Position numbers and translations under genes: made by a program. This document shows positions 2,255 through 36,420 of a stretch of DNA of 64,000 nt, piece after piece. Each line of letters starts with the position of its first letter. The stretch's first letter is position 1. Source of the DNA: a virus (taxonomy: Duplodnaviria; Caudoviricetes). A model generated the notes under the pieces. The model was not told where the DNA came from. It worked only from the letters and a program-made list of their open reading frames with translations, and searched no databases. Location of the stretch: the IMG/VR virus record IMGVR_UViG_3300016476_001378; one strand, written 5' to 3'.

Positions 2255-3334
2255 ATGTCTTTGGAAAAACAGGCTCTTACGAATTACTATAATTTTGCTG
2301 TTAAAGGCGCTAAGCCTGATAAATGCCCATATTGCAATGATGTAATAAAAGGATGGGCGAGGACGAGATGCGTCGATTGTAATAGAATATTCTGCCGAAG
2401 TCACATGGAACCCTCTTTAGGCCAGAATAAGAGATGCCCCTTCTGCCGCGAGAAGAGAAAAAGCTTCTTGAACAAGGATGCTGTGACTGCATCCTTAAGA
2501 GTTGCAGAAAGCCTAAGAGAAGAATTTGCACTTGGTGCTGCACAAGAGCTGGAAGATAAAATCTTCGCTTCAATTTTTGGCAATAAAGAGTTGATAAAAT
2601 TCGCACAAGTAGAAGAAAACAAAGAAGAGGCCCCAGAAGAGCCAGCAGAAGCCCCTGCCCCAGAACAACCCCAGCAGCCAGATCAACCTCAGCCTGAAAA
2701 AATTGACCCAAATCAAGCGCTTAATGAATTAGTCAGTTCTTTATCCAATGACATTTTAAGTACATTGTCAGAAGATTCTGTTGTCACACCAGAAATTTTA
2801 AATGATACATTCCAAAGCATGTTGTCACAATTAAGCAATGTAGTACCCAGCACAAGAACTAGTGCCAGCACAGACCTTAGAAGCTTATTTACTGATACCT
2901 CATCAGAAGGTATAAGCTTAGGCAAGCTCATTACTTACTTTGATAAAGATGGCAATTTGATCACAGAAGCTTATAAGGGCGGTTTACAAGATGCAGAAAT
3001 GGCAGGAGGAGTTGTTCCACCTGAATTTGCAGAAAAATTCAACGAACTTAGTGATTTTGTAAGACAACTCCCAGACCCAAGTGATCCTAAATTCTTCGAA
3101 GAGGCAGCCAAGGCAGCCCAGTCTATTAATGGTATCACAGAAATGCTTTATAGAATGAAAATGTCTCCTGATGTATTAAGAAAAAATCTCATTTTACAAG
3201 GTGGCAAACCACCCATAGTAGATACTTTAATAGACATGAGCAAGGGTAGCAAAGTAGCGCCCGACACACGCAGAAGAGAGCCACCCCCAATAGACCCTAC
3301 ACGAGGCTTCAATTTTATGGGGCCTGGCAGATAA
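2255..3334 (+). CDS. Hypothetical protein with an N-terminal cross-brace zinc finger; candidate head/internal protein
   Basis: CxxC-x11-CxxC-x4-CxxH-x10-CxxC, an E/P/Q-rich linker and several [RK]xA sites. Confidence 0.6.
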   Translation: MSLEKQALTNYYNFAVKGAKPDKCPYCNDVIKGWARTRCVDCNRIFCRSHMEPSLGQNKRCPFCREKRKSFLNKDAVTASLRVAESLREEFALGAAQELEDKIFASIFGNKELIKFAQVEENKEEAPEEPAEAPAPEQPQQPDQPQPEKIDPNQALNELVSSLSNDILSTLSEDSVVTPEILNDTFQSMLSQLSNVVPSTRTSASTDLRSLFTDTSSEGISLGKLITYFDKDGNLITEAYKGGLQDAEMAGGVVPPEFAEKFNELSDFVRQLPDPSDPKFFEEAAKAAQSINGITEMLYRMKMSPDVLRKNLILQGGKPPIVDTLIDMSKGSKVAPDTRRREPPPIDPTRGFNFMGPGR

Positions 3335-3351
3335 AATCCACTTTATTAATT

Positions 3352-3384
3352 AAACCCAGCCGATGGCTGGGTTTTTTGTATAAT
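3352..3384 (+). terminator. Intrinsic terminator followed directly by a TATAAT -10 box
   Basis: AAACCCAGCC-gat-GGCTGGGTTT, then TTTG and TATAAT at 3379-3384. Confidence 0.85.
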
Positions 3385-3418
3385 TAATACAAAATAAAAT
3401 TTTCAAAAAGAATAAAAA

Positions 3419-4294
3419 ATGAAAATACAATTAACCAATATTGATGATGCCCTCGAGTGCCCCTTTTATGTTAAAGCAGGTAAGAAACACACTTGCTTCA
3501 TGAAACTTAATATGTCAGCAGGGCAAGCTATGAATTTAGTGGACAACCCTGACTTTGACACAACTTCATGGAATGATAACTGCGAAGGCAAATTTGAAAA
3601 TTGCAACTTTGTTAGTCTTTTATATAAAATTGATGCAGAGCCAGCAACAGCTGTCCAAGCTGAAGACTATGAAGACTTTAATCCTTTCGAAGAGTATGAG
3701 GAAGAAGATGAAGTGCAGCCTGAGCCTGAAGCAAAACAACCAGAAGTTGCTCCAGAAGATTTAATTCATGTAAGAGTACATCCTGTTGAAAACATTTATA
3801 GTGTCAAAGTTGATGCTTTGATTTATCCAAATAATCAAATGTTATTGATTGATGATGAAGAATTAAATTATAGGAGCCAAGATAGAATTCAAGCTGAATT
3901 AGATAAGATCGCCCCTCCTGTTGCAATGGGCTCTGTTTTTAAAACATCAAATGGTGGAAACCACAAGGGTGGTGTAATACCAAAAATTATTTATCATGCT
4001 GTCGTTGCCGCACAGTCAAGATTAGTCAGTGAAGCTGCCATTTCAAAAGCAACAATCAAATCTTTGACTCAAGCAGATGAAGATGGTTGCAAAGTTGTTG
4101 CTATGATGCCTATGGACTGTGGTAACTTTGACTTACATCAAACAGCAAACGCGCAATTAAATGCCATTTATAAATTCTTACAAACTGTATCAACTAAAAA
4201 TATCAGACATATTTTTATTATCACAACCAAAAGCGACAAGGTGACACTGGACATTTTCAACGAAAAATTCGATAGGATCTTTGGCGAAGAATAA
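3419..4294 (+). CDS. Macrodomain protein (degenerate) with an N-terminal Cys motif
   Basis: C-terminal half has 'VDALIYPNN', 'VFKTSNGG', 'IIYHAV' and 'SLTQADEDGCKVVAMMPMDCG', which follow the macro/A1pp fold pattern. Confidence 0.7.
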   Translation: MKIQLTNIDDALECPFYVKAGKKHTCFMKLNMSAGQAMNLVDNPDFDTTSWNDNCEGKFENCNFVSLLYKIDAEPATAVQAEDYEDFNPFEEYEEEDEVQPEPEAKQPEVAPEDLIHVRVHPVENIYSVKVDALIYPNNQMLLIDDEELNYRSQDRIQAELDKIAPPVAMGSVFKTSNGGNHKGGVIPKIIYHAVVAAQSRLVSEAAISKATIKSLTQADEDGCKVVAMMPMDCGNFDLHQTANAQLNAIYKFLQTVSTKNIRHIFIITTKSDKVTLDIFNEKFDRIFGEE

Positions 4295-4312
4295 ATCCTA
4301 GGGAGATTTTTA

Positions 4313-4633
4313 ATGGATATCATAGCATCTAAACTGCTTCAAGCTTGCTTGGATACGTCCCATCACAATCCAGTATGGATAATTGATCAATTTGGCTCTA
4401 TCGTTGCATCTAATTGCAGAGCTGAAGAATTCAATTTCCATGACATTGATTTTAATTCAGCACTTGTTAAAATCAATAATTCAGTTTGGAAAGTTTCCAT
4501 CAAAGAATTAAATCATGGTACAAATTGTTACCTTTACGAACTAGAAAATGAAGAAGACAATAGATTGCAAAATTCAGTAGATAAGCTTGCTGAATATCTA
4601 GAAAAAAGAACTTTCAAATCAGCCAAAATGTAA
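4313..4633 (+). CDS. Small PAS-like domain protein
   Basis: 'PVWIIDQFGSIVASNCRAEEF' matches the PAS N-terminal signature. Confidence 0.5.
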   Translation: MDIIASKLLQACLDTSHHNPVWIIDQFGSIVASNCRAEEFNFHDIDFNSALVKINNSVWKVSIKELNHGTNCYLYELENEEDNRLQNSVDKLAEYLEKRTFKSAKM

Positions 4634-4654
4634 TTTAAACATTATTTTAAACTG

Positions 4655-4709
4655 ATCAAACCTGCTGTTTTCCCTAGGTGGCAGGTTTGATTTTTGTCAA
4701 AGTCCAAAC
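4655..4709 (+). terminator. Terminator hairpin overlapping an AGG-N19-CAAAC element
   Basis: ATCAAACCTGC (4655-4665) pairs with GCAGGTTTGAT (4681-4691), followed by a T tract. AGG is at 4683. Confidence 0.6.
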
Positions 4710-4725
4710 TAAGGAGCGAAACCTT

Positions 4726-5268
4726 ATGGACAACAGAGATTTAACACAAGTCGAATTATTAGTTGAAATTGTCAGCGAAAAGATCAACGCACAGGTTTCA
4801 GCTCATGAAAAGTATAGCCAAGCTTTTATAAAGATTTTAGAAGCGCTTGAAGCTATTATAGAAAACCAAGAAACTGGACAAACAGTGTTCTTGCAAAGCG
4901 TCGTAAATAAACTTGCTGACATTGAAGAACTTTCAACTCAAATTGATGACAATGTTGCCCGCCAAAAAGAATTAGCCTCCAATCTTTCAGAAAAGCTAAA
5001 AGACTTTGAAACGGTAAGCGAAGCTCAAATAAATGGCCTCAAGACAAAAATAGATGGCTTAAATGACTCAAATGAAGAGTTCAATAGTGCCATGCTAGGT
5101 AAATTGGCCGATGTTGTATCTAAGCTCGATGATCTTACAGCTGCTAAAAAAGCATGGAAGAAATTTGGTGAAAGAATTTTAATTTATGTTGGGGCCGCTG
5201 CCACATTGATTGGTCTTTTAGCCACCTTGGTTCAATTTGGCATTGTAACTTTAAAATGGGGTAATTAA
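4726..5268 (+). CDS. Coiled-coil protein with a C-terminal transmembrane helix
   Basis: ATG at 4726 after TAAGGAG, heptad-rich body, hydrophobic 'ILIYVGAAATLIGLLATLVQFGIV'. Confidence 0.7.
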   Translation: MDNRDLTQVELLVEIVSEKINAQVSAHEKYSQAFIKILEALEAIIENQETGQTVFLQSVVNKLADIEELSTQIDDNVARQKELASNLSEKLKDFETVSEAQINGLKTKIDGLNDSNEEFNSAMLGKLADVVSKLDDLTAAKKAWKKFGERILIYVGAAATLIGLLATLVQFGIVTLKWGN

Positions 5269-5308
5269 TTTTACTTTATAAATAAATCTATAAGGAGGAG
5301 AATCAAAA

Positions 5309-5929
5309 ATGAACACTCCAAGAGATCCAATACAAAATAATGTCATAGCCATTTCAAATGGAATACATGTATTTATCCCACATCCCAATTACATGATTGG
5401 GCTTTCTAATTTTTCGCACTCTGAAGATTACATTGATTTACAAAAATGGTTTTTGAAGGCCAAGCACAGCCCAAGGCACATTAAGATGCTCTTTGAAGAA
5501 AATGATGTTACATCCACATGGTGGGAATTTGTCAAAGAACATAGAAATCAATTCTTAAGCAAAATGTTTATTGAGAATAATTTGATTGTTCTCAAAAGCT
5601 TCTACAACAAATTGATGTATGAAAATCAATTTAATGGGGGCCCTATTAATTCTGAAAATCCAGAAATAATTAGTTTCTTTAATGAATATGATTTTTGTAA
5701 TCAAGTTTTAGCTGCTGGTAAATACATTCCTAATCCCCCAGTGAATGAAGCTATTAGTCTTCTATCCGAAAAACAAATAGCAGATTTAATGAAAAACCAC
5801 ATTGTTGTATTAGAAGACAAACTACATAGATCTACATTGCAAAACATAGCACAACACGATGTTTTAAATAATATTCTTACCCATACTATTTTAAGTTATT
5901 GGGAGTGGCAGAACTGGATTTCTGTATAA
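5309..5929 (+). CDS. Hypothetical protein
   Basis: Strong AGGAGG RBS, preceded by TGG-N19-TAAAT (5257-5283). Confidence 0.7.
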   Translation: MNTPRDPIQNNVIAISNGIHVFIPHPNYMIGLSNFSHSEDYIDLQKWFLKAKHSPRHIKMLFEENDVTSTWWEFVKEHRNQFLSKMFIENNLIVLKSFYNKLMYENQFNGGPINSENPEIISFFNEYDFCNQVLAAGKYIPNPPVNEAISLLSEKQIADLMKNHIVVLEDKLHRSTLQNIAQHDVLNNILTHTILSYWEWQNWISV

Positions 5930-6324
5930 TTACAGCTATGAATAATGTTATTATCTCTGGATCAGGCCCCCTTTTTGATAGATTAACAAATCAAATTAAT
6001 CAAACCCAATTTAGATCATTATCTGATACCGATGATGCATTAAAAGTTTGGGCTGGAGAAGGAACCCCAGGCGATGATTATCAAATCTGGATTAAAAAAA
6101 CTAATCACACTGATTTTCACCTCATAATCAAAGAGCTTAAAGAAATTATTAAAAATAACCCCAACCTTGAAATGGTTGGGGTTGATAATATTCATTCAAT
6201 TCCAGTCATGCCCAACATGTGTGCAATAATGGGCAGAGACAATGTGATGAGAACATTTCAAAATCAATTTGATTTAGATAATTATTTAATAGAAAGATTT
6301 GCTGTCAGCACTGTGGACTTTTAA
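5899..6324 (+). CDS. Hypothetical protein
   Basis: ORF within a tight operon. Start uncertain (TTG 5899 or ATG 5938). Confidence 0.6.
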   Translation: MGVAELDFCIITAMNNVIISGSGPLFDRLTNQINQTQFRSLSDTDDALKVWAGEGTPGDDYQIWIKKTNHTDFHLIIKELKEIIKNNPNLEMVGVDNIHSIPVMPNMCAIMGRDNVMRTFQNQFDLDNYLIERFAVSTVDF

Positions 6325-6564
6325 ATGTCATTAAACTCAAGATGTCAATGCCAAAAATGTGGTTGTACATTTTCTTTATTCACAGAAGAAATGAAACTAT
6401 TACCAACCATGAAAATAGGCTCATTACAGCCAAAGAAGATTTTAAAAACATGGACAGACTGGGTAGCACACATTGCTACAAATTGCCCCGATTGCAGAAT
6501 TAGATTTACCCCCAAAGATTGTTTAGACGATTATGAAAAGCACAAAAACCTCTTGCAAAAATAA
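6325..6564 (+). CDS. Small zinc-ribbon protein
   Basis: CQKC...CPDC; starts immediately after the upstream stop codon. Confidence 0.6.
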   Translation: MSLNSRCQCQKCGCTFSLFTEEMKLLPTMKIGSLQPKKILKTWTDWVAHIATNCPDCRIRFTPKDCLDDYEKHKNLLQK

Positions 6565-7204: not shown

Positions 7205-7206
7205 AT

Positions 7207-7587: not shown

Positions 7588-7588
7588 A

Positions 7589-8509
7589 TTATTTTCCTTC
7601 GTTTAGCTGTTTTTTTCGTTCCAAAACATTTATTGTATTTCTAGCTTCCTTTGAGGCTGTCAATGCTTGGTTGAATTTTTCTTGATTTTCTGGTGTGAGA
7701 GCTCTCATAACAGCATTGTGATTTGCGGGTTTTGTAATCCACTCTTCATAGCTTCCAACTTGACTAACACTAAGCATTTTTAGTGTCTCATTGGCTTTTG
7801 CAAGGTCCCGAACGGCGTTCGATAATTTTGCCTGATCGCTGAACGATAGTCCTACAACAACGCTGTGTATAGCAGCCCCACCTGCGCCTACAATTAATGC
7901 ACTCAAGGCTTTGTCTTTTCTTGCTAGAATTTCGATTTCATTAATATCTTTTAATATTTCATTAAATACAGCTTCACTTTGAGGTGCTAATTTCTGTCCA
8001 TTTATCGAAACTTGTTTTCCGGTTGCCACTTGTGTTAGTATGCTTTCCAGGGATGGAGCTGTCTCTTGTACTATAGTATTTCCTTTGCCATACACATTTA
8101 AAACATAGCTTTTTTGAAGTATTTGTGCAATTTTGTCGTTTTTCCTAAACGCAGGAAGAAATTTAACTATACTTAAAATAAGCTGAATGCCTTTAGACTG
8201 CACAAGGCCGCTGACAAGCTGAAAAATTGGATTTGAACCCAAGGTCTTTTCTGCCCTTGAAGCAACATTTAAAAATTTTAGAACTGAACCCAAGTTTTTT
8301 ATAGCCAATTGGCCCCTTGCGTCTGTGTAAATATCGCCCGCAGCAAAAAGCTTTCGTAATTCTGGTTTTGTAAGCTTGCCCAAGGCATTTAATGCCCATT
8401 CCCTGATACCTGCTGTTCTAATAGAATTCGAAGTCAAAGCATTAATATTTACATTTCTTGAAGCTTTAGAAACTCTTTGATTGTTATCTTCTTTAAAATA
8501 CTTACCCAT
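7589..8509 (-). CDS. Hypothetical basic helical protein; candidate internal virion protein
   Basis: AAAGGTG RBS, leader ending 'SIRTA', upstream AGG-N19-GAATAT (8556-8583) inside the clpX 3' end. Confidence 0.6.
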   Translation of the reverse strand: MGKYFKEDNNQRVSKASRNVNINALTSNSIRTAGIREWALNALGKLTKPELRKLFAAGDIYTDARGQLAIKNLGSVLKFLNVASRAEKTLGSNPIFQLVSGLVQSKGIQLILSIVKFLPAFRKNDKIAQILQKSYVLNVYGKGNTIVQETAPSLESILTQVATGKQVSINGQKLAPQSEAVFNEILKDINEIEILARKDKALSALIVGAGGAAIHSVVVGLSFSDQAKLSNAVRDLAKANETLKMLSVSQVGSYEEWITKPANHNAVMRALTPENQEKFNQALTASKEARNTINVLERKKQLNEGK

Positions 8510-8533
8510 GACAAATTTACACCTTTTTGAGTT

Positions 8534-9988
8534 TTAAACAACTACAGATAATTCAATATTCTTATCTTCAATATAGTCATCCTTCAAAGAATAAGAAGCT
8601 GGGAATGTTAAAGCAGATTCATCAATAATAACAGTGCCCTTGAAATTAATAATTTCGTTATCTTCATCAATTTCTTCATCATCATACTCGCCAAGTAAAT
8701 CAAATGCCGCTTCTGAAACAGATAATCTAACAATAGACTTTAATGCACGAGCCCCGGTTGCCATAGCAAATGCCTTTTCAACACAAGTTTCAATATAGGC
8801 CTCTGTAAATATTAAATTGTAGCCATTGTCTGCAAAGAGTTTCTTTTGAATTCTGATTGGCGAATGCTCAGTTTCAACCAAGATCTTTCTAAGCTCTTCC
8901 TTAGTGAGAGGCGCGAGAGCTACAATAGATGGGATTCTTCCAAGCAACTCGGTTAAGATTCCATAATCACCAAGGCTTTCAAGCAATACATCATAAGAGG
9001 CCTGGGACAGAATTTCATGAGTTCTCATTGCACGATCATACTCAGATTCTTTAGAATCATTTGATCGGAAACCAATCTTCTTTCCGCCATAGCCCATCTT
9101 CTTGGCTACAATGTCAGACAATCCAATAAAGGCCCCGCCGAACAAGAATAACATCTTACCTGTGTGCACAACAATTGAATCATGTGGATCCTTAGCCAAG
9201 CGAACTTGGCGCCCCTCTACAAGACGAAGTAGTGAGCTCTGAGTGCTCTTATTCATTACTTCACTCTTGCCTTCATGATGATAACTTGCAAGCTTGTCCA
9301 ACTCATCTACAAATACGATACCACGCTCAGCCAAAGTACTGATGCCCTTGGCCTTTTGAACGATTTCCATAATCATAGAATCAACATCAGCACCCTGGAA
9401 ACCAGTTGGTGAAAAAATAGTAGAATCAGATGATACAAATGGAACATTCAGCTTGCTTGCTATTGTATTCGCAAGAAGAGTCTTTCCACTCCCAGAAGGC
9501 CCAATCATTAAAACATGATGCGAGTTAGGAATTGTGTATGAATCATACTCAGATTCATTAGCGTAGTGCTCATGAACTGCAACACTAACAATCTTCTTAG
9601 GTGTAATTTGACCAACTACTGTTTTATCAATAGCTGAAAAAATCTCACGGGGATTTGGGACAATGTTGTCTTGCATGTGCTTCTTGATAAAAGAATTACG
9701 CTTAGATGCTGGAATAAGATCTAAAACCTTTTCCTTAAGCCTCCAGCCAGTCTCAGCCTCTTCAATAGAAGACAAACATTGCACAACCTTGGAGTTCAAT
9801 TCTATTTGACCAATTCTGCGACCACGCTCAAATGGAGCTAGGCATTCTTTACAAACCCAAATGTCACGATTCTGAATTGTCAGTTCTTTGCCTTTGTTTT
9901 GAACATCACCCTCTTGTGATGGCTTTTTGCAAATTAAACAGAGATTTGTATCGATGTCATCTGTTGGTGGATCTATTTTTACTTTCAA
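8534..9988 (-). CDS. clpX: ATP-dependent Clp protease ATPase subunit ClpX
   Basis: N-terminal C4 zinc finger, 'VVGQ', Walker A GPSGSGKT, 'DELDK', IGF loop 'KIGF', 'ELLGR', 'TGARAL'. Confidence 0.92.
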   Translation of the reverse strand: MKVKIDPPTDDIDTNLCLICKKPSQEGDVQNKGKELTIQNRDIWVCKECLAPFERGRRIGQIELNSKVVQCLSSIEEAETGWRLKEKVLDLIPASKRNSFIKKHMQDNIVPNPREIFSAIDKTVVGQITPKKIVSVAVHEHYANESEYDSYTIPNSHHVLMIGPSGSGKTLLANTIASKLNVPFVSSDSTIFSPTGFQGADVDSMIMEIVQKAKGISTLAERGIVFVDELDKLASYHHEGKSEVMNKSTQSSLLRLVEGRQVRLAKDPHDSIVVHTGKMLFLFGGAFIGLSDIVAKKMGYGGKKIGFRSNDSKESEYDRAMRTHEILSQASYDVLLESLGDYGILTELLGRIPSIVALAPLTKEELRKILVETEHSPIRIQKKLFADNGYNLIFTEAYIETCVEKAFAMATGARALKSIVRLSVSEAAFDLLGEYDDEEIDEDNEIINFKGTVIIDESALTFPASYSLKDDYIEDKNIELSVVV

Positions 9989-12441: not shown

Positions 12442-12518
12442 AGTAATACGTGTATTAATTGAAATTATTTATCAATTATGACCTTGCTTTAAAAAACAAA
12501 TTATGAGGTTAATTCTTT

Positions 12519-12800
12519 ATGGGTGGTAATTATAATATGAGTGCTCCTGGAAGCAATGTAATAACCGATCATGGTTATGGTGAGTGGGTAGTTGTACTCT
12601 ATAACCCAAGTGGCCCCTGTGGTTTGTTCCGTGGCAATTTATTAGTTGCAAAGGACTTTCACACAATCTATGGTTATAGAACTTTAAAAAATGGTGATAA
12701 AGAAAAGAAGATTTTGGCCTCATTCCCAAGCCAAAATGTAGCTTTTGTTTATGACTCAAGATTTATCGAAGATGTAGATGGTGAGGACGTAGAGGAATAA
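12519..12800 (+). CDS. Hypothetical protein
   Basis: GAGG RBS; acidic tail. Confidence 0.65.
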   Translation: MGGNYNMSAPGSNVITDHGYGEWVVVLYNPSGPCGLFRGNLLVAKDFHTIYGYRTLKNGDKEKKILASFPSQNVAFVYDSRFIEDVDGEDVEE

Positions 12801-12809: not shown

Positions 12810-13076
12810 ATGTGGTATTTTTCTAAAACAATCAGAACAGCCGCAAGCTCTTATGAAGAGAAAATCATAAGAGCTGATGCTGAACGCATAGCTCGAAGAC
12901 GATTATATTATCAGGGAGATGCAAATCCCAATTTACAAAAGGTTGCAAAAATCGTAGAATTAGCAATTTCAAATTTAAAAGACAAATTTGGAAACTTAGA
13001 TAAAATCAGAAGAGCTTCGTCTTCTGAAAATTTAAATTCAATAATCGAAGAGGCCGTGATAGAAATTTTGCCTTAA
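12810..13076 (+). CDS. Small protein with an MWY…RTA leader
   Basis: Begins MWYFSKTIRTAAS. Confidence 0.7.
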   Translation: MWYFSKTIRTAASSYEEKIIRADAERIARRRLYYQGDANPNLQKVAKIVELAISNLKDKFGNLDKIRRASSSENLNSIIEEAVIEILP

Positions 13077-13792: not shown

Positions 13793-14377
13793 ATGAGAAG
13801 CAAGTTGATTTTAATTACAGCTGTTAGAAATGAAAAAAATCAAACTTTTATTACCCTTAATGGTAGTCAAGAAATAGTTTTAGAAAATTATTCTGGAGCC
13901 CCTATTAAAAGTGGTAGATTTTGCATAGTTTGTTTTTCCTCAAAGGGTAAATTGTTGTCATTCTATTTAATAGACTCCAAACATAAGCCTTTCCAAGTCT
14001 ATGGCAGCATTGACGCTTTAACAGAAGGCAGCAATATTTGTGATGATACAATCGCATTATTGAAAGAAAATGCTTATGCTACGCAGATTTGCGTTAGCAG
14101 CTTTAACACCTTGAATAAAAATCAGATTGAAGATAACAAGATAAAGTTATTAGAATTTGAAAGTCAAGTTTTTGATAGTTTATTGTCTCACAAAACAGGC
14201 TGGAAAACAGCTAAGAGAAAGATTATAGGCTTGCTTCAAACTGCAGATCTGCAAGATTCTATTAAGAATAGTTTTTTAGGGGCCATCAGCATAGCTCCAA
14301 TGCCCAAAGTTGCCATAAACAAAACTATAGAATTAAATTTAGAAGATTATCCGTACAGTAAGATTATTAGGTACTAG
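13793..14377 (+). CDS. Hypothetical protein
   Basis: 194-aa ORF with a GGAGG RBS. Confidence 0.65.
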   Translation: MRSKLILITAVRNEKNQTFITLNGSQEIVLENYSGAPIKSGRFCIVCFSSKGKLLSFYLIDSKHKPFQVYGSIDALTEGSNICDDTIALLKENAYATQICVSSFNTLNKNQIEDNKIKLLEFESQVFDSLLSHKTGWKTAKRKIIGLLQTADLQDSIKNSFLGAISIAPMPKVAINKTIELNLEDYPYSKIIRY

Positions 14378-14768
14378 GGAATAAAGCTTCTTGAGCCCTG
14401 TTAAATTGCACAGCTTGGTTTTTGCAAATTGGGCATGCACTATCTAAATTCCAAATCATTTTCCCTGATGGTAGGGTTTCAATTCTCTGCTGGCATTTAC
14501 ATCCATCATGTGGTGCTATAGGCATTACAGGATTTGGCGCTGGCCTTACTGACTGCGGTGCTGGCTCTGGAGCTTCTATAGGTGCTGTGCCAATGTCTGT
14601 ATTGATTTCCTCTGGTATTGCTTGCTCTAAATCAGGTATGGGTGATACTACATCACCAGGTGTATTTGGATCATCAACCTCTTCTTCTTCGGCAAAAGGT
14701 AAAACGCCACGCTTCTTTTCGAGAAGTTTTTTAGTTAAAGGTTTGTAAGCAATTCTTGTGTACCACAT
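14367..14768 (-). CDS. Small protein with an MWY…RIA leader and an HxxCxC/CxxC motif resembling MuF-type head morphogenesis proteins
   Basis: MWYTRIA, 'PHDGCKC' and 'CPIC'. Confidence 0.6.
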   Translation of the reverse strand: MWYTRIAYKPLTKKLLEKKRGVLPFAEEEEVDDPNTPGDVVSPIPDLEQAIPEEINTDIGTAPIEAPEPAPQSVRPAPNPVMPIAPHDGCKCQQRIETLPSGKMIWNLDSACPICKNQAVQFNRAQEALFPST

Positions 14769-14802: not shown

Positions 14803-14833
14803 GTACAAATGTAATTAATTATGAGGTACAACA

Positions 14834-17350: not shown

Positions 17351-18556
17351 ATGGCAGCAACAACGTCTTGGGTATCTTATGACAATGCACCTAGTTTTGG
17401 TGTTTTACAAGAAGATTTACCTTTTGTTTCATTAGATTTAACAAATGATATCAAAGTGGTAGGACTTAAATTCCACGGGTCTGAAATAGACTACGTTGAT
17501 ATTTTCCTCCAAGACAAGTTTGCCGACATTTATTATAGTGACTCTACTCCAAATGAATACAGTGTAGATTTAACATTAAAAAGCATTTCTTTAGAAGCTG
17601 CAAAGTTTTGGACAAAAAATGTTTATGCTATGGCAACTAGCGCAGATGCATTGTCAGCTACTTATGACAATGGGGCATCTGGCGTTGGTGCAACATTAAC
17701 AAACTCTGGAACCCAGGCCCCTTTAGAAATTGATGGAATCAAGTTGTCAATTAATGACATTGTTTTTATCAAATATTTGTCTTCGACAAACAGTGCTCAT
17801 TATGGTATCTACACTGTAACTAATTTGGGAAGTGACACAACAAACTGGGTTTTAACAAGGACAGAAGACACAGATTCTGGTAAAGAACTATTAGACATGG
17901 TTGTTGTTGTCACAGCTGGCACATCATATGCTGGCACCAATTGGAAAATCAACAACACAAGTATCACAGTAGGTACAACTGGACTTACCTTTACTGAAAT
18001 TACAAGTACAGCAGATCTAGAAGCAAATGTAACATGGACAGAGCTAATTGCTGAAAGCACAGGAAGTATGGTAAGATTTTCTGTTAACAAGACTGCAAAT
18101 GACAGAACTTTAAGGTTAGACCGCAAGTTTGAAGCTTATTCTTACAAAATAGCACTTAGATTGACTACATCTTTAGCGAATTTTCAAGTAAGAAATTGGA
18201 AGTTAAATACAGAATTTAAAACTATAGTTCCAGAAACCAGTAGCAGACCTGTTAAAATTTTCTCGTCTCCAGATTTCCCTGTATTGAGACAAACAATGAC
18301 TGTAGAATATTATCAACCAACTACAACGAGCGATAATGTAACGTATTCTACAGGAAAAACTTGGACTTCCGTTGATAAAATAGAAGTATTCAAGCAACCA
18401 AGCGGTGGGGCAATAACTCCTGTTTCTGCAAATACTTATGTTGCGAATGGAATGTTGGGAACTATTTCGTTCCTAGTGGCTCAGCTGCCAACAGACACCA
18501 TAACTGTAACAATTAGTAGACCTTTAACAACTGAGCAAACTACAACACCAATTTAA
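17351..18556 (+). CDS. Virion structural protein sharing two modules with the giant tail proteins
   Basis: Contains the 'IDG.L…GIY.V…W.L.R' fibre module and the 'PTTTSDN.TY…W' module. Confidence 0.75.
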   Translation: MAATTSWVSYDNAPSFGVLQEDLPFVSLDLTNDIKVVGLKFHGSEIDYVDIFLQDKFADIYYSDSTPNEYSVDLTLKSISLEAAKFWTKNVYAMATSADALSATYDNGASGVGATLTNSGTQAPLEIDGIKLSINDIVFIKYLSSTNSAHYGIYTVTNLGSDTTNWVLTRTEDTDSGKELLDMVVVVTAGTSYAGTNWKINNTSITVGTTGLTFTEITSTADLEANVTWTELIAESTGSMVRFSVNKTANDRTLRLDRKFEAYSYKIALRLTTSLANFQVRNWKLNTEFKTIVPETSSRPVKIFSSPDFPVLRQTMTVEYYQPTTTSDNVTYSTGKTWTSVDKIEVFKQPSGGAITPVSANTYVANGMLGTISFLVAQLPTDTITVTISRPLTTEQTTTPI

Positions 18557-18689: not shown

Positions 18690-19187
18690 ATGCGAACTAT
18701 CGAAGCACAACTACATGACATTCTTTTAGACTTAGTACCCGATCAGTACTCTGCAATTAGCCAGGCGAAAATCGTAGCTGAGGCTGCAGATATTTACTAC
18801 AAGGCTAACAAGGCTAACACTAGAACCTCAGCTGCTAAAAGAGGCGAAACTGGCTTGGTAAAAGCCCTCTGGACTGCATTAGCTTCCTTGTCTTTGGAAG
18901 AAGATTATGAGTATGATGAGCCTAGCTATGTAGACGGATTTGGCATGGATCCAAATCAAATCGTTAGAAGTGCTGTAAGTAAAAGTAATAAAGTTAATTT
19001 CAAAATGTCCAAGAAAGCTATGGAAATCCTCAATGATGAAGATCTTTCAGTTTTCTTAGACGAAGAAATAGAAAACGAATACAATTTTGATGATGCAACA
19101 GATGATTATCTTCATCCTATGGAAAACTTTAAATCTCCTGGAGATCCAAAGCATCACACTGATTCCAGAATTATTCCAGGTTTCTAA
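18690..19187 (+). CDS. Hypothetical acidic protein; candidate head or scaffold-associated protein
   Basis: ATG at 18690; internal RTSA, RSA and KKA sites. Confidence 0.6.
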   Translation: MRTIEAQLHDILLDLVPDQYSAISQAKIVAEAADIYYKANKANTRTSAAKRGETGLVKALWTALASLSLEEDYEYDEPSYVDGFGMDPNQIVRSAVSKSNKVNFKMSKKAMEILNDEDLSVFLDEEIENEYNFDDATDDYLHPMENFKSPGDPKHHTDSRIIPGF

Positions 19188-19870
19188 TGGGCAAATTGTT
19201 TAGAGCAGCTCAATACGCTTCAGCTCCAACTGAACCAGCTCCAGCCCCTCCTCCAGCGCCAGCTGCAGATCCTTTGGCTGGATTAGGTGGTGGTATGCCT
19301 CCAATGCCACCGTCTATGGGCATGCCTACAGATCCTATGGCTTCTTCCGCGCCTGCGCCAATGCCTCCTCCACCTACTGGTGAGAGACAAGAAATCATTG
19401 GCCCCATTTCTTCACCATCGCAAATGTTTTATGACATGGATCTTGCAAGATACATACAAAATAATTTGCAACTAGATGCTGATGCTTTAGCCAAGAAGGT
19501 CTGGGAAGCTTACGGCGGTAAGCCAAACGGTCAACCAGATGCAAGTAAAGTAGGGGCCAGAACAGACAGCTACACTGATCATACACCAGAGCAAGCTCAG
19601 GCTGAGCGCAAGGCAACTGAAAACTCAAAATGGAAAAGACTTGAAGCTGGCAAAACAATTGCAGACATCGTGTCTTACGATGACCTTGGCAAAATTGTTT
19701 CTGGGCTCATTTTTGGTGTAATTCAAAAGGTCATAACCCAGTCTATGGCACCTCCAGGTGGTGCTGCAATGGCCTCAAATAGAGCAAGAATTATTATTGC
19801 AAAAAATTTAGAAAAAGAATATCTTTTCAAACAATCCGATGCGATAATTAAAGAAATATTTAAAAATTAA
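19187..19870 (+). CDS. Pro-rich protein with an 'LFRAAQ' leader; candidate head protein
   Basis: TAATG coupling to the upstream gene; Pro/Met-rich N-terminus. Confidence 0.65.
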   Translation: MGKLFRAAQYASAPTEPAPAPPPAPAADPLAGLGGGMPPMPPSMGMPTDPMASSAPAPMPPPPTGERQEIIGPISSPSQMFYDMDLARYIQNNLQLDADALAKKVWEAYGGKPNGQPDASKVGARTDSYTDHTPEQAQAERKATENSKWKRLEAGKTIADIVSYDDLGKIVSGLIFGVIQKVITQSMAPPGGAAMASNRARIIIAKNLEKEYLFKQSDAIIKEIFKN

Positions 19871-28637: not shown

Positions 28638-28653
28638 TTATTAACCTCCAGAA

Positions 28654-30423: not shown

Positions 30424-30448
30424 CTATTTTGTTTTTATGTTTAATTAA

Positions 30449-30486
30449 ATTATACAAAAAAAGAAGCCAGAGATAAACTCTGGCTT
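30449..30486 (-). terminator. Terminator followed directly by a TATAAT box upstream of dnaK
   Basis: AAGCCAGAG-tttat-CTCTGGCTT, then cTTTTTTTg and TATAAT. Confidence 0.8.
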
Positions 30487-30667: not shown

Positions 30668-30674
30668 TTAATCC

Positions 30675-31031: not shown

Positions 31032-31071
31032 TTTGACACTCCTCCATTACATGGAAAGAAAAACCACATAC

Positions 31072-32868
31072 CTATTTTTTAACATCTCTAAGATCAAAAC
31101 CTGCCTCTGACTGATAAACACGCTTTCTCGCAAGAGAATGTTTACGCATGTGTTTGTCTGAATCCATAAAATCAATAACTACAGCTTCTGATTTACCACT
31201 ATCTTTATGTGATCTAATAACTCTTCCAATAGTTTGTAAAACAGTTGCTGAAGCTTGTGTAGATCCAGCCATTATAAGAACACTAATAGCTGGCGCATCG
31301 ATTCCGGTGTTGAGCCATTGTGTTCCTATAAGTATTATATCGTTACTTTCACAAGAATTAAGCATTCTTCTCCGATAATCTTGCTCTTGGTCATCTGGAT
31401 CATCTTCTCCTTTATCGCTCCCAGGAACAAAAACAGAGTTTTTAATCATTGCTTCTAAAATATTGCCATGCTCTACTCTGTCAACAATAATCATAACTGG
31501 CCTTCCAGCTTCTTGAAATGCTTCAGCAAATTGCTTAATCCTATAATTCCTCTCCCAGCATTTTGTAATGTGCTTTGTATAGGAATCTGCGTAATTGCTG
31601 ACCTCTTCTGTATGCTTGATTGGAATCATGTAGATTCTTGGCGGAACAAGGAAACCTCTATTTATAAGAAATGTCGGGCTAACTTCTATAAGTTTTCTTC
31701 CCATGCATCCTTCTAGGCGAATTTCTTGATTGTCTTCACGCCAAGGTGTTGCTGATAATCCAAATCTATAGTAAGCCCTAGACGCATGATTTGCTAAAGT
31801 TTCAATAACGATAGCAGCAAGATGAGCCTCGTCGACAATAATTGCCTGAGCATTTTTAAATAGCTCTCTAATTTGTTTCTTATTTTCTATAGATTGCAAT
31901 CTATTATCTAAAGCACTTTTGGCTTTTTTATAATTTGTGATTTCATTTTTCACAAAACTATTAAAGGACTTATCAAAATCCTTTTCAAGGGAGGTTAAAG
32001 TTTTTTCTAATATTTTAGCTTCTTTGGGTTCAGCTTTAGCAATCTTTTCTTTTGTGAGATCTATGTGTAAGCTTGTTTCTGCCAATCTGTTAGTGGCCTC
32101 TTCTTTTTTAGAATTAAAGGCTTTTTCAGCTATTTCAAATTCAGCTTTAAGTTGGTCTAAGGTCTTTTTAGTTCCTTCTCCAGCAAGTTCATCTATCTCT
32201 ATTTTATTTTTAGATTCACTAAATTTTTCATTGAAGGCAGCCAGCGCTGTTTGATAGGTACAAACATTTATACCACTGGGCTCTATATTATAAATGCCAT
32301 CACCCATCATGCCAATAGAGGCTTCTTTACCATCTATTTTAAGATACTTAGAAAACTCTTTTTGGGTCTGCTTAAGCAACGATCTGGAAGGAACTGTAAA
32401 AATAACGGGGCCAACACCCATTTGCGCGATCAATTCGCATGCTGTCATAGTTTTTCCAGCACCTGTGGCCAAAGCCAAGACGCCTCTGGAAACTTTAATG
32501 GCCTTGTCTACAGCCTCTATTTGATAATCATAGAGCGATCTGTTAAATTCTTCAAATCTAGTCTCAACATTTAAATTTTTAACTGGTTTGATTCTATTAT
32601 CAATTAATTTAAAAGAGACCCCTTGTAATTTAAGGGCATTGAGAACAGAGCTTAAAAGCCCTGTTGGAAAAGTTTGCGTTCTCTTATCGTAAAGAGTTAT
32701 AATACCATCCCACTGATGGCTTTTATAAGCAGCAGACCATTCGGCATTAGGCACCATGTAACCACACTTCTCTCGAAGCATGTTATGAAATGCATGCTGA
32801 TGTTCTTTATCGGGGTGTAATTCACCGATAATTTGGCATTTGGTATTAGTAATGCTAATAGACACCAT
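31072..32868 (-). CDS. SF2 DEAH helicase (UvsW/Res-like) with a coiled-coil insertion
   Basis: 'LYDYQ', ATGAGKT, 'DEAH', 'GLSATP', 'TGID.P', 'QTIGRVIR'. Confidence 0.9.
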   Translation of the reverse strand: MVSISITNTKCQIIGELHPDKEHQHAFHNMLREKCGYMVPNAEWSAAYKSHQWDGIITLYDKRTQTFPTGLLSSVLNALKLQGVSFKLIDNRIKPVKNLNVETRFEEFNRSLYDYQIEAVDKAIKVSRGVLALATGAGKTMTACELIAQMGVGPVIFTVPSRSLLKQTQKEFSKYLKIDGKEASIGMMGDGIYNIEPSGINVCTYQTALAAFNEKFSESKNKIEIDELAGEGTKKTLDQLKAEFEIAEKAFNSKKEEATNRLAETSLHIDLTKEKIAKAEPKEAKILEKTLTSLEKDFDKSFNSFVKNEITNYKKAKSALDNRLQSIENKKQIRELFKNAQAIIVDEAHLAAIVIETLANHASRAYYRFGLSATPWREDNQEIRLEGCMGRKLIEVSPTFLINRGFLVPPRIYMIPIKHTEEVSNYADSYTKHITKCWERNYRIKQFAEAFQEAGRPVMIIVDRVEHGNILEAMIKNSVFVPGSDKGEDDPDDQEQDYRRRMLNSCESNDIILIGTQWLNTGIDAPAISVLIMAGSTQASATVLQTIGRVIRSHKDSGKSEAVVIDFMDSDKHMRKHSLARKRVYQSEAGFDLRDVKK

Positions 32869-32892
32869 AATAATTAAATTATGGTGTCTATT
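32857..32892 (-). promoter_or_regulatory. Perfect 15-bp inverted repeat joining the -10 box to the helicase start codon
   Basis: AATAGACACCATAAT-aattaa-ATTATGGTGTCTATT. Confidence 0.75.
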
Positions 32893-32918
32893 TTAAGATA
32901 AAAATACTAAAATTTAAA

Positions 32919-33257
32919 TTAAACTAAGCCAGCGTCTTTTAAAGCTTGAGCTAATTCTAATCTAAAGAGATCTGCCTTTGCTGGCTCGTGAGCTATCAAG
33001 TTAGCAAAGTTGGACTCAATGTCCTCACGAGTTCTCTTGATTTCAGCTGCCTTTTCTGCTGCAGACTTTCTGCCTCTTCTTGACATTGCCTCTACCTCAG
33101 GCTCAGCTGCTTCAGTTTCTGCAATCTCTTCAGCCTTTGCTTCAACAACCTCTACTACAGGTTCTGCTGCAGGTACTTCAACTACTTCTTCGACAACTGG
33201 TTCTACAATTGGCTCCTTAGCTTTTGGAGCTTCTTTCTTTGGTCTTTCTACTGCCAT
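32919..33257 (-). CDS. Hypothetical E/V/A-rich protein
   Basis: AAAGG RBS; low-complexity acidic N-terminus. Confidence 0.7.
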   Translation of the reverse strand: MAVERPKKEAPKAKEPIVEPVVEEVVEVPAAEPVVEVVEAKAEEIAETEAAEPEVEAMSRRGRKSAAEKAAEIKRTREDIESNFANLIAHEPAKADLFRLELAQALKDAGLV

Positions 33258-33269
33258 TTTTATACCTTT

Positions 33270-33686
33270 TTATTTCTTAGATAAGATTTGTACTGCTATT
33301 TTATTTTTTTGACCATTAAGCGAACTTATAGTCATTTGTGCTGCTTCTTCAACAGCAGCTTCTTCTTCTTTATTCAGCGGAGCAACAGAAGATGCTTTCA
33401 TTTTAATTATTTTCATAAATTCATCGAGCATTTCCTGGTCTGTGAAATCACCATCTTTGATAGCGTTCAAACCATCTAGCCAAATATCGAATATCAAAGA
33501 ACCCTTGTCACCCAGCCTGTCGCCTAGTAAGCCTTTGACTTTTAAAAGCGAAGATTCTACAGAATTAATCTGTTTTTGCCTTCCAGCCAAATAGCTAAAG
33601 GACAGAACTGTTCCTAAGGCGAACAAAATCCACCAACCATAAATAGACAAATAATATTCTATTAAATGTTTGATAGTATTAAGCAT
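33270..33686 (-). CDS. Membrane-anchored hypothetical protein
   Basis: N-terminal TM segment 'IYGWWILFALGTVLSFSYLA'. Confidence 0.7.
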   Translation of the reverse strand: MLNTIKHLIEYYLSIYGWWILFALGTVLSFSYLAGRQKQINSVESSLLKVKGLLGDRLGDKGSLIFDIWLDGLNAIKDGDFTDQEMLDEFMKIIKMKASSVAPLNKEEEAAVEEAAQMTISSLNGQKNKIAVQILSKK

Positions 33687-33687
33687 G

Positions 33688-33924
33688 TTAGCACTTTACA
33701 GCAACGACATCGTCGTCATCATCGTCAGCTAATGCATCAGGAATGTCAACCTTTTCAAGGCTGGCGTGGACGTTTCTGTGGCAAAATGGGCAATTGTTAT
33801 TGGGCCCTAAATTTACCTTAAAAATTACATGGGAGCAAGCTTTACAAACTACAACACCATTTGTGTCATTGTTCTGCTCTGCTACGTTTTCAATGCGGCC
33901 AGTGGCCCTTCTAATCATAGACAT
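33688..33924 (-). CDS. Small zinc-finger protein
   Basis: CKAC…CPFC, acidic tail; upstream TGG-N19-TAAAAT (33951-33978). Confidence 0.65.
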   Translation of the reverse strand: MSMIRRATGRIENVAEQNNDTNGVVVCKACSHVIFKVNLGPNNNCPFCHRNVHASLEKVDIPDALADDDDDDVVAVKC

Positions 33925-33958
33925 TTTTTATTTCCTTTTCCTGTTGGGCTATTTTATT

Positions 33959-34939
33959 TTATTTACCAATCAAGGCCAGATACTGCTTGAGTGCAGCTTC
34001 CTGTTCTGAATTCAGATCTGTTGGTATCTTATGATTTATCTCAATGATAAAATCCGAGCGTTGTATCGGATGGACATAAAATCCCTTGCCTCTGAATTTT
34101 AATTTTTGCCCAGACTTTGCAGCCTTAGGCACCTTAATTAATATTTCTGTGTTTTCTAGGGTCTTGACCTTCTTTTCAGCACCGATCATAGCCTCAACAG
34201 GATCCACGTCAAGAGTGACACAACAACACATGTTGTCGTCAATCTTAAAATAATCATCGTGTTTTAATTTGCAAATAATGATTAAGGGGCCAGGTTGTTG
34301 TTCTGGATCTTCTTGAGAACCAGAGCCTTGTAAGATAAATTGTTTATGCAAGCAACCAAGTGGGAAATTTAATTCAGAATCTTTCTTTTCTTTTTTGACC
34401 CCAAAGCCCTGACAAGTATTGCAAACTACTTTGTGTAAGAACCCTCTGGTTCTACATCTTTTACAGGGGCCAAAATCTTGTTGCATGTTAAACATGCCAT
34501 CATTCCAGATTTTAATAATTCTGCCAAGGCCTTGGCAGTCTGGACATACGCTTGGTACTTGGCCTTCAGAAGCACCGCCTTCGCCATTACAATCAGAGCA
34601 AAAAATTACACGTTCGTAATTTACAGATCTCGTAAAAGGCTTCATACTCTCAAGAGGACTAATCTCAACAACAATCTGCACTGCAGAATTGGGCTCTTTA
34701 TGAATGTGCCTTTGTTGGCGCATTTGAGAAAATATATTGTCTCTGTTATCATACTCAGATCTTTTTCTTGGATCTGACAAAGTTTCATAAGCTTCAGTAA
34801 CTTGTTTGAACTTTTCTTCTGCGCCAGTGGCTTTGTTTACATCTGGATGAAATTCCTTTGCAAGCTTCCTGTAAGCACTTTTGATTTCATCGGGTGTGGC
34901 ATTTTTAGAAACACCCAGGACAGAATAAAAATCAGACAT
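33959..34939 (-). CDS. dnaJ: DnaJ chaperone
   Basis: J domain with HPD, four CxxCxGxG-type motifs, C-terminal domain. The G/F-rich region is absent. Confidence 0.93.
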
Positions 34940-34967
34940 AATTCGAACTACCTCGAATTACATTATA
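34936..34967 (-). promoter_or_regulatory. dnaJ -10 box plus a hairpin over the RBS and start codon
   Basis: Minus strand reads TATAAT-g-TAATTCGA-ggtagt-TCGAATTA-TG. Confidence 0.55.
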
Positions 34968-35687
34968 CTATTTTTGTATAGATTGAAGCAATCTTTGAAT
35001 TTTATTAGAAGGACAAATTGCCCGCTCACCAATGCCTATGTCTGCGTGTTGGCCAGTTACACCCATGATGCTTCCATAAATCAAACCATCTGTGCCTATG
35101 GCCATTCCACCACTTGAACCTTGAAGAATATCAGCATCAATGAAGATTATATCATTCCATGCTTGGCTAGGAGCATTTTCGCCCATAGATTGGTGAACAT
35201 TTGAAATTCTGCCAACTGTGGCTGTGTCATGCCATCCCTCTGGAGAGCTAATTACGGCAACAATGTCGCCAAGTTGGGCTTTATTGCTATCTGCCAAATT
35301 GGCTGCAGGAATAGTTTTTGCAACTTGTGCGTTATAAATAATTCCAGAATCTATGCTAGGATCAGAAATAACGAACTGCATAGGAAATAAAACTTTACCA
35401 TCAAATGTGGCCGAAATTTCAGCGCCAGAACCCTGAAGCTCAGGTGGAACTACGTGACCAGCTGTGGCAACATAACCGTTACCTAAATGGAAACCGCTGC
35501 CTGTCCATTGTTTTCTGCCAGATTTAACAAAGATAGTACACGAAGACTGTAAAGATTTTTGAATAATGTCAAAAATGGGATCATGAATCTTTTGGGGCTG
35601 CTCTTGATTTAGTGCAGGTGTAGCTGCTGGAGCTTCCTGTGCTAATCTCAAACGCCATTCAAGTGAATTAATATCTAATTTAAACAT
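34968..35687 (-). CDS. Trypsin-like (S1, HtrA-type without PDZ) serine protease
   Basis: 'GSGF', His in 'TAGHVV', Asp in 'IDSG', Ser in 'QGSSGG'. Confidence 0.88.
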   Translation of the reverse strand: MFKLDINSLEWRLRLAQEAPAATPALNQEQPQKIHDPIFDIIQKSLQSSCTIFVKSGRKQWTGSGFHLGNGYVATAGHVVPPELQGSGAEISATFDGKVLFPMQFVISDPSIDSGIIYNAQVAKTIPAANLADSNKAQLGDIVAVISSPEGWHDTATVGRISNVHQSMGENAPSQAWNDIIFIDADILQGSSGGMAIGTDGLIYGSIMGVTGQHADIGIGERAICPSNKIQRLLQSIQK

Positions 35688-35690
35688 AAT

Positions 35691-36176
35691 TTATCGCCCA
35701 ATAATCTTCGCTTTGATGTTTTTGATTGGCACAGGTCCGAATGTTCTAGAATCTTCAGATTCTCCCTCATTGTCACCCAGTACATAAACATATTCTTTAG
35801 GAATTTCTAAAACAAATGCATGTATGCCATATTTAGCCAAAGTTTGTATTTCTCTATCTACATCAGGCAAAGCTGGCATAGGCGAGAATTTTCTTTCACC
35901 CAAATCTGCACAAACTAATTTTTGTCCAGAAGTATAAGCTACTCTCTTTATTATAAATTCCGAATCTTGATCTATAACCACTACATCGCCAACTTGAAAA
36001 TTTCTATCTAGCGAATTTGCAAAAACAATGCTATTCGCATGAAAATTTGGTTCCATTGAAACACCAACTACTTTGGTTATAAAAATTGGTCTAAAACATA
36101 CAAATACACAAGCTAAAATTAAAATGAAAATTTGAATCCCAGTTTTAATTATCTTTTTTTGAGTCTTTTTTATCAT
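35691..36176 (-). CDS. lepB: Signal peptidase I (S26)
   Basis: N-terminal TM helix, 'GVSMEP', 'IIKRV', 'GDN…SEDSR.FG'. Confidence 0.9.
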   Translation of the reverse strand: MIKKTQKKIIKTGIQIFILILACVFVCFRPIFITKVVGVSMEPNFHANSIVFANSLDRNFQVGDVVVIDQDSEFIIKRVAYTSGQKLVCADLGERKFSPMPALPDVDREIQTLAKYGIHAFVLEIPKEYVYVLGDNEGESEDSRTFGPVPIKNIKAKIIGR

Positions 36177-36420
36177 GAGCTAAGCCTTCAGCAACTTTTA
36201 AAGCTTTTTTCAAATCTTCTTCTTTGCTAACTTCTTCTCGATTCTTTCTGATCAAATAGATTGTTACCGGGACATTTTTGCTATTTAGCTCACTGCTCTT
36301 GTAAACATCAAAATCAGTATTTCGTAATAGCCATACATTTTCAGGCACAATTTCAAACCAAACCTCATTTATAAGAGGTTTGGTTTCTTGTTTCTTCTTC
36401 TTTGCTATTCTATACCACAT
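36145..36420 (-). CDS. Small protein with an MWYRIA leader
   Basis: Begins MWYRIAKKKK. Confidence 0.7.
   Translation of the reverse strand: MWYRIAKKKKQETKPLINEVWFEIVPENVWLLRNTDFDVYKSSELNSKNVPVTIYLIRKNREEVSKEEDLKKALKVAEGLAHDKKDSKKDN

Follow-up and report, generated by a model that had tools for sequence, protein, structure and literature searches.

The 64,000-nucleotide stretch of the Caudoviricetes record IMGVR_UViG_3300016476_001378, hereafter the window, has a G+C content of 38% and carries about 58 genes, including those for ClpX, PhoH, two J-proteins, Hsp70, GyrB/GyrA and RNase HII, an S8–S26–S1 protease module and a run of giant virion-type proteins, each 1,068–2,760 residues long. Three small genes of the window open with nearly the same peptide, here termed the MWY tag. 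The family A gene (12810–13076, + strand) encodes 88 residues and carries the tag in codons 1–11 (12810–12842), where MWY is followed by a five-residue spacer and R-T-A (MWYFSKTIRTA). The family C gene (14367–14768, − strand; 133 residues) starts with MWYTRIA (codons 1–7, 14748–14768), and the family B gene (36145–36420, − strand), coding for a very basic protein of 91 residues, starts with MWYRIA followed by Lys (codons 1–6, 36403–36420). Spacers of 5, 1 and 0 residues, respectively, precede the [KR]-x-A element.

All three starts were verified and, once the first 12 residues are removed, pairwise BLAST of the three bodies gives no match below E = 0.1, in agreement with the preliminary description of this DNA, which had reported one N-terminal peptide on three otherwise unrelated small genes. 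The composition of the 58 called genes predicts 0.027 MWY starts against the three seen, and from this expectation the Poisson probability of three or more is about 3e-6; no internal M-W-Y occurs in the window proteins, and no further ATG, GTG or TTG start of this kind is found in the window. The peptides are short and their carriers are small orphan proteins, as might be the case if the similarity had arisen by chance or if the three genes were diverged paralogues of shared ancestry. The probability of this explanation is nevertheless practically nil, as it is refuted by the counts in the window alone, by the lack of similarity between the bodies and by the recurrence of this tag elsewhere in 16 or more unrelated families that differ in Pfam fold.

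For none of the three carriers was there a match in Pfam, in PHROG or in fold comparison, and the ESM Atlas returned nothing usable for them. In family A a four-helix body is predicted after the tag, with helices from residue 15 and an AlphaFold2 confidence (predicted local distance difference test) below 50 for residues 1–12. In family C the tag is followed by a short helix and a long disordered stretch, acidic and rich in Pro, and the protein ends in a zinc-ribbon-like domain of the Cys4/His type; its AlphaFold2 model displays a low-confidence coil at residues 1–9. According to these models the tag is not part of the predicted fold of family A; for family C the model is weak in this region.

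Relatives of the window comprise the IMG/VR records G001 (84 kb), G002 (478,840 bp, with terminal repeats and 100% complete) and G003–G007 (300–379 kb), together with five loci (L001–L005) from a metagenome scan with family C; the scan of genome contigs with the same family gave no match, nor did a search of IMG/VR with the small tagged proteins. The gene order of 3.4–44 kb of the window is also found in G001 and G002. The capsid protein of G002 is 49% identical to gp27 of phage G, and this genome also encodes a related portal and a gp19-like head protease. Because the window shares its gene order with a genome whose capsid, portal and head protease resemble those of phage G, kinship of the window phage with the phage G lineage is confirmed, indirectly, through G001 and G002. 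A phage-G-type capsid gene is present in all five records G003–G007.

Within the shared block the family C gene divergently adjoins a J-domain gene (start 14834, + strand), and G001 and G002 have the same gene order (A, C, J-protein, PhoH). Family B is a lineage-specific insertion between the S8 subtilisin and S26 signal-peptidase genes; it is found only in the closer relatives of the window and is absent from G001 and G002, where S8 and S26 adjoin. The module of S8 subtilisin, S26 signal peptidase, S1 protease and DnaJ (33959–37344, − strand) ends the run of giant virion proteins, and its gene order is kept in G001 (37024–40395) and G002 (76035–79307).

The tag is retained in orthologues of all three families. 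The seven orthologues of family B, at 80–97% identity, all start with MWY[RK][ITL]A. In family C, MWYTR[IVL]A persists in orthologues with as little as 41% identity and MWY in those with as little as 27%; Met-1, Trp-2 and Tyr-3 are invariant in eight sequences over this range, on a par with the Cys ligands. Family A orthologues preserve the W-Y cap and [KR]-x-A on either side of a spacer of 0–5 residues. The family A tag has a two-part build, with the cap and the basic-x-Ala box both kept across a variable spacer.

The preliminary description also pointed to a shared nucleotide context at the three genes, which holds: the 12-nt sequence AATTATGTGGTA has exactly three copies in the window, all at the MWY starts. 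Such an exact 12-mer common to all three genes would be expected if AATT-ATG-TGG-TA functioned at the DNA or mRNA level, whether as a promoter, coupling or start-site signal, with the peptide a by-product. Two of the three genes are without a Shine-Dalgarno sequence, two of the three start 9 nt after the TAA of the upstream gene, and two neighbouring genes have the near-copy AATTATGAGGT as their ribosome-binding region, namely those starting at 12519 (+ strand; copy at 12500–12518) and 14834 (+ strand; copy at 14817–14833). This near-copy is one base from the AATTATGTGGT of the MWY starts, a likeness that may be coincidence. Against a nucleic acid signal, AATT is merely a common context before ATG, ranking second among the −4 to −1 contexts of the window (6/58 genes). 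In addition, upstream bases differ in L004, L005, G001–G007 and the IMG/VR loci, and some of the starts are GTG, yet M-W-Y-[KR]-x-[AS] persists. Codons within the tag vary as well (Tyr TAT/TAC, Ala GCT/GCA/GCC), Ile, Leu and Val interchange, and conservation reaches residue 6, which has no fixed codon. Because orthologues keep the tag while its codons and the upstream DNA change, comparison of the sequences shows selection to act on the peptide, and a signal at the RNA level, here rejected, is left with only a very slight probability. The preliminary description had further placed most of the genes downstream of an AGG-N19 element that it did not define; its guessed form, CAGG-N17-21-TAAAAT, lies upstream of only one of them.

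The tag is also found in the related genomes. G002 displays six ATG starts with MWY against 0.37 expected, plus one GTG start with MWY[KR], giving seven tags, and G001 has three MWY starts against 0.028 expected. The codon pattern of the tag occurs in 6–13 copies in each of G003–G007 compared with 0–1 for the reversed control. Of these 51 hits, 39 are clean open reading frame starts, while all those with Asn or His at position 4 are non-starts. The 39 independent tags define the consensus M-W-Y-[KR]-x-[AS] followed by Q, K or I: position 4 is occupied by Arg (20) or Lys (19), position 6 by Ala or Ser in 36 cases, and position 7 most often by Gln (16), then Lys (6), Ile (5) and Ala (3). The MWYRIA-K start of the window fits this consensus exactly. 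A scan across IMG/VR with the codons of MWYKxAQ gave 56 matches, of which 42 lie at open reading frame starts and fall into 16 unrelated clusters. Pfam assigns to these carriers the domains ART-PolyVal (the largest cluster), GNAT, PcfJ, AAA_33 kinase and NUDIX+HAD_SAK_2, and the tagged genes of G001 and G002 include CCA-adding enzymes and a 2H phosphoesterase. As the enzyme domains of tagged carriers begin 10–60 residues in, the tag is an add-on to them. M-W-Y-[KR]-x-[AS] is thus well supported as a portable, strictly N-terminal label shared by unrelated proteins and kept in their orthologues, and the portable leader proposed in the preliminary description stands, being confined to N-termini, outside the predicted fold and attached to many enzyme families in relatives. 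Its users form a sub-lineage of giant freshwater phages that resemble phage G; a literature search for an MWY tag in phages found no paper.

Two features of the tagged genes in these relatives can be described separately. The MWY-tagged CCA-adding enzyme of G002 (162578–165646; L022:2578–5643), with its PolyA_pol head, RNA-binding and HD domains, is split by a LAGLIDADG domain, which is probably an intein; the tagged orthologue in G001 is uninterrupted. Tagged genes are often grouped in tandem arrays of three to five small same-strand genes, as in G006 (226885–229228 and 236345), G007 (270234–273818) and G003 (343509–344821), and these arrays are reminiscent of the T4 internal-protein loci.

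Leaders related to the tag had been proposed for three further genes of the window, two of which are upheld. The strongest case, judged by conservation, is a protein of 227 residues (19187–19870, + strand) whose leader (codons 1–8, 19187–19210) is without MWY and ends F-R-A-A, followed by Gln. Its basic-x-Ala core is followed by a Pro-, Ala- and Met-rich linker of about 55 residues and then by a conserved C-terminal domain. Orthologues in L001–L003, G001 and G002 display the same organization, with a short leader M..F-[KR]-x-A-Q and a Pro-rich linker. Across the family, [KR]-x-[AS]-Q occurs in the first 30 residues of 54 of the 95 representatives (<50% identity), compared with about 0.02 expected per protein, most of the other 41 being visibly N-terminally truncated gene calls; leader length ranges from 5 to 27 residues. 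Similarly, the trypsin-like S1 protease (34968–35687, − strand; 239 residues) has a 16-residue leader (35640–35687) that ends W-R-L-R-L-A and is followed by Gln. A low-complexity linker separates this leader from the catalytic domain (Pfam Trypsin_2, residues 63–203), and [KR]-x-A-Q is kept at approximately residues 16–20 in the window, G001 and G002. The third gene (7589–8509, − strand; 306 residues) was not accepted into the system: it has a single relative, in L001, in which the first ~45 residues are conserved, including SIRTA, while VSKA is not. This gene lies beside that for ClpX and is 35% identical to its L001 orthologue, while the flanking genes are 94–99% identical; this comparison suggests a hypervariable protein whose N-terminal module is conserved.

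The preliminary description extended the same code to internal sites in two genes, neither of which was accepted into the system. In the gene at 18690–19187 (+ strand), for which orthologues place the true start at ATG 18690, IVRSA lies inside a conserved block, and TRTSA is replaced by V-K-T-A in relatives and absent in G002, so that its sites are indistinguishable from ordinary sequence. The gene at 2255–3334 (+ strand), encoding a RING-like, low-complexity protein, contains seven [KR]-x-A against 3.3 expected (p = 0.05 before correction for 58 proteins) and has no orthologue in any locus fetched. The extension fails, since the motif stands at chance in the window and TRTSA and LIKFA misfit [RK]-x-A.

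In the related genomes the tag is linked to the head module. The window itself has no prohead protease, as had been stated before; it encodes proteases of the S8, S26 and S1 types and a ClpX. The gene directly upstream of the portal gene starts with MWY[KR] in five of six genomes, namely G002 and G003 (GTG starts), G004, G006 and G007, while its counterpart in G005 has (V)IAQ instead. These portal-upstream genes share a C-terminal motif and thus belong to one head-module family. The portal proteins of G003, G004, G006 and G007 have [IFM]-[KR]-[TV]-A-A at their N-termini, and the I-R-T-A-A string found there is identical to the end of the family A tag of the window. The head-protease polyprotein of G002 (1,428 residues; phrog_18299, E = 3e-20) has five [KR]-x-A-Q sites where 0.66 are expected, and the first of them closely follows the protease domain. 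Throughout G002, 25 of the 76 [KR]-x-A-Q sites fall in the first 40 residues (p = 2e-4), and in G001 four of ten fall in the first 12 (p = 6e-5), while control motifs display no N-terminal bias in either genome. Enrichment of [KR]-x-A-Q per protein was rejected as a detector of head proteins, its top match in G002 being NAD synthetase. The capsid proteins of phage G (gp27, L043:23289–24137) and G002 (467015–467875) have a common N-terminal E-G-R-V-A-L-A-Q-A-M, which resembles some tag ends such as K-R-V-L-A-Q in family C of G001. These sequences hint that tags might imitate a motif of the capsid or portal N-arm.

T4 offers the closest described precedent for a label of this kind. In its capsid targeting sequence (CTS) of 10 residues, the N-terminal part is responsible for targeting, and processing takes place at residues 8 and 10. 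The CTS is carried by IPI, IPII, IPIII and Alt and is removed by the prohead protease gp21 (PMC9026906). The internal proteins that bear it are unrelated and poorly conserved, and foreign proteins can be packaged by means of the CTS alone (Mullaney and Black 1996, reviewed in PMC9026906). Alt is a head-packaged ADP-ribosyltransferase, and ADP-ribosyltransferase (ART) and 2H domains are among those of virion-delivered polyvalent proteins (PMC5512222). The best reading of the MWY tag, with a probability of roughly 55%, is that it represents a T4-like capsid targeting sequence that loads proteins into the head. This reading is favoured because the portal-upstream gene is tagged in five of six related genomes, because portal N-termini and the head-protease polyprotein contain further copies of the basic-x-Ala half of the tag, and because the carriers are enzyme types that other phages deliver from the virion; this support is circumstantial.

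Under capsid targeting, the aromatic cap fMet-Trp-Tyr, whose Met would not be removable by methionine aminopeptidase, would dock freshly synthesized protein to some part of the prohead core during its assembly, the candidates being the scaffold/protease polyprotein, the portal and the inner face of the shell. Inside the head, the head-maturation protease would then cut at the basic-x-Ala/Ser half to release the cargo, which would leave with the DNA at the next infection. Docking, packaging, cleavage, cut position and ejection are all inferred by analogy. In the window the predicted cargo with full tags comprises the small orphan proteins of families A, C and B, and that with longer leaders and a basic-x-Ala-Gln core the 19187 protein and the S1 protease. 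Any cut would more likely follow Ala/Ser than Gln, because residue 6 is Ala or Ser in 36 of 39 tags whereas residue 7 is Gln in only 16 of 39; in the 19187 family, however, Gln is nearly invariant. Alternatively, tags might dock without being cut.

The likeness to the T4 CTS covers a short N-terminal leader on unrelated, fast-changing proteins, a targeting half followed by a processing half (both proposed for the MWY tag), an ADP-ribosyltransferase among the carriers, genes scattered or in small arrays, and cargo sets that differ between relatives. In contrast, the two leaders are unrelated in sequence, the T4 leader of 10 residues ending I-A-E and the MWY tag of 6–7 residues ending [KR]-x-[AS]. 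The head module of the tagged phages is also phage-G/Mu-like, with a Mu-type portal and a gp19-/phrog_18299-type protease in place of gp21 (S77), and packaging and cleavage have been shown for T4 and are predicted for the MWY tag. In phiKZ-like giant phages (phiKZ gp175, SPN3US gp245) the propeptide site is S/A/G-x-E, with cleavage established by mass spectrometry (PMC10052503, PMC7411985). These too are giant phages with many head-internal or ejected proteins, whose N-terminal propeptides end in the protease consensus and contain multiple sites, although the propeptides are long and protein-specific and use another motif, in contrast to one portable six-residue MWY tag. Phage prohead proteases share the fold of herpesvirus assemblin, which cuts at (V/L/I)-x-A followed by Ser. 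The presumed MWY cut is similarly preceded by Ala and followed by a preferred polar residue, but assemblin sites are internal or C-terminal in scaffold proteins and there is no N-terminal cargo tag.

The window encodes a ClpX (8534–9988, − strand), with orthologues in L001, L002, L004 and G001, which could be a reader of the tag if the latter were an N-terminal degradation or adaptor signal (N-degron) recognized by phage or host ClpX or another AAA+ protease, so that early enzymes are removed on schedule. The tag is short, strictly N-terminal and of a hydrophobic-hydrophobic-basic-hydrophobic character, and it resembles ClpX N-motif-1, which is reportedly polar-T/phi-phi-basic-phi (Flynn et al. 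2003). Phage G packages both ClpP and ClpX (bioRxiv 10.1101/2024.12.16.628780). Nevertheless, a phage ClpXP degron is disfavoured because the complete G002, bounded by direct terminal repeats and carrying seven tags, has neither ClpP (PF00574) nor a ClpX homologue, although the window and G001 have ClpX in the syntenic block. Conversely, phage G has ClpXP but is without the tag. The basic-x-Ala core also lies up to 27 residues in (the 19187 family), inside the head-protease polyprotein and at portal N-termini, positions ill suited to an N-degron, and a conserved head-module gene carries the tag. Host ClpXP might still read the tag; taken over all such proteases, an N-degron is quite improbable.

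In another alternative, the tag is an uncleaved docking peptide for a machine other than the capsid, such as the phage Hsp70/J-proteins, tail or baseplate assembly, an unknown compartment or an export route. DnaK and two J-proteins are encoded in the window, G001 and G002, family C always divergently adjoins the J-domain gene, and family B lies inside the S8–S26–S1–DnaJ module that terminates the giant virion-protein run. Aromatic and basic residues are typical of Hsp70-binding cores, which the aromatic/basic tag resembles. However, an Hsp70 site needs neither the extreme N-terminus nor Ala/Ser at position 6, which is found in 36 of 39 tags, and the only conserved structural-module carrier lies beside the portal and head-protease genes and not beside tail genes. 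Export is likewise at variance with the tag, which has no hydrophobic core for Sec and places Lys or Arg at −3, where it misfits signal peptidase I. Docking to a non-capsid machine is therefore considered unlikely. The S26 signal peptidase I of the window (35691–36176, − strand; Pfam Peptidase_S26, E = 1.5e-18), which has an N-terminal membrane anchor, was also considered as the enzyme that removes the tag. Signal peptidase I follows the Ala-x-Ala rule, with small residues at −3 and −1, and uses a hydrophobic core of seven or more residues; this candidate was rejected, since the tags span 6–11 residues without a hydrophobic core and carry Lys/Arg at −3.

Several observations weigh against capsid targeting itself. 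All tagged phages form one lineage, so that co-occurrence of the tag with the head module may only reflect descent, and capsid loading and cutting are predictions from sequence. The three carriers of the window have no recognisable function and do not lie beside head genes, and their tags are followed by Ala, Tyr and Lys, not by Gln, the commonest residue. The window proteome contains 146 [KR]-x-A, no more than the 147.5 expected by chance, and the excess in the first 12 residues (8 against 4.9, p = 0.12) is not significant. Motif counts per protein are noisy, as the most enriched G002 protein is the NAD synthetase mentioned above. Finally, phage G, the only cultured relative, has no gene starting with MWY.

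In phage G the five tag-codon hits equal the control count and none is at a gene start, and its virion proteome was accordingly rejected as a test bed for the tag; the bioRxiv report cited above and one further publication on phage G give no cleavage sites. Seven of its proteins (gp5, gp9, gp10, gp12, gp13, gp17 and gp20; L043, JN638751 1–42000) have a common basic leader, M-(x)-[KR]-R-L-[IK]-K. These small proteins are encoded around the portal and head-protease genes, and gp13, just before the portal, continues with S-K-T-A-A. To judge by these sequences, phage G may use its own N-terminal leader in place of MWY. The cultured Tunturiibacter phage Tunturi_5 displays no tag enrichment either; its homologue of the most frequent tagged ART is part of a polyvalent protein of approximately 1,360 residues encoded beside a tail gene.

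A more specific form of capsid targeting can be put forward only tentatively and is somewhat doubtful. Here the tag would work by mimicking the N-terminal [KR]-x-A-A/Q arm motif of the portal, and possibly of the capsid protein, as presented to the scaffold/protease polyprotein. Six codons would then turn any gene into virion cargo, making this the smallest natural capsid-loading signal known, and injected enzymes would be exchanged as single-gene cassettes and not as polyvalent fusions. The exchanged arsenal, large and fast-changing, would consist of ADP-ribosyltransferases, tRNA and RNA-end repair enzymes, kinases and acetyltransferases. The polyvalent proteins found in phages and conjugative elements, for which entry into the host along with the DNA has been predicted (Iyer et al. 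2017, PMC5512222), have the same enzyme repertoire as the tagged genes (ART, 2H, NUDIX/HAD RNA-repair, kinases). They differ in that their domains are joined in one peptidase-cut chain, while the tagged phages employ separate genes, each with its own tag. Short, portable peptides are also used for loading in encapsulins and bacterial microcompartments, where they dock unrelated enzymes to the inner face of the shell, which in encapsulins has the HK97 fold. Encapsulin peptides are usually C-terminal and those of microcompartments are amphipathic helices of about 18 residues; neither is removed, and their sequences are unrelated to the MWY tag.

Should the tag prove to load cargo, listing the M-W-Y-[KR]-x-[AS] starts would reveal, from sequence alone, which proteins a large clade of uncultured giant phages injects; in the window the candidate virion cargo would be the three orphan proteins, the 19187 protein and the S1 protease. 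The lists of tagged genes are rich in host-takeover and RNA-repair enzymes and may indicate what these phages have to overcome in the first seconds after infection begins. As a loading signal of six residues, the tag could also serve as a compact tool to package foreign proteins into large capsids, and it would give a testable specificity for the phage G gp19-like family of head-maturation proteases.

Elsewhere in the window, a fibre-like protein of 401 residues (17351–18556, + strand) contains a module of about 120 residues that, at 40–44% identity, is shared with two of the giant proteins, encoded at 44020–50859 and 51549–55379 (both − strand), the comparison being made through a near-identical L001 orthologue. 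The same fibre-like protein also matches tail-fibre genes of Pelagibacter and Roseobacter phages.

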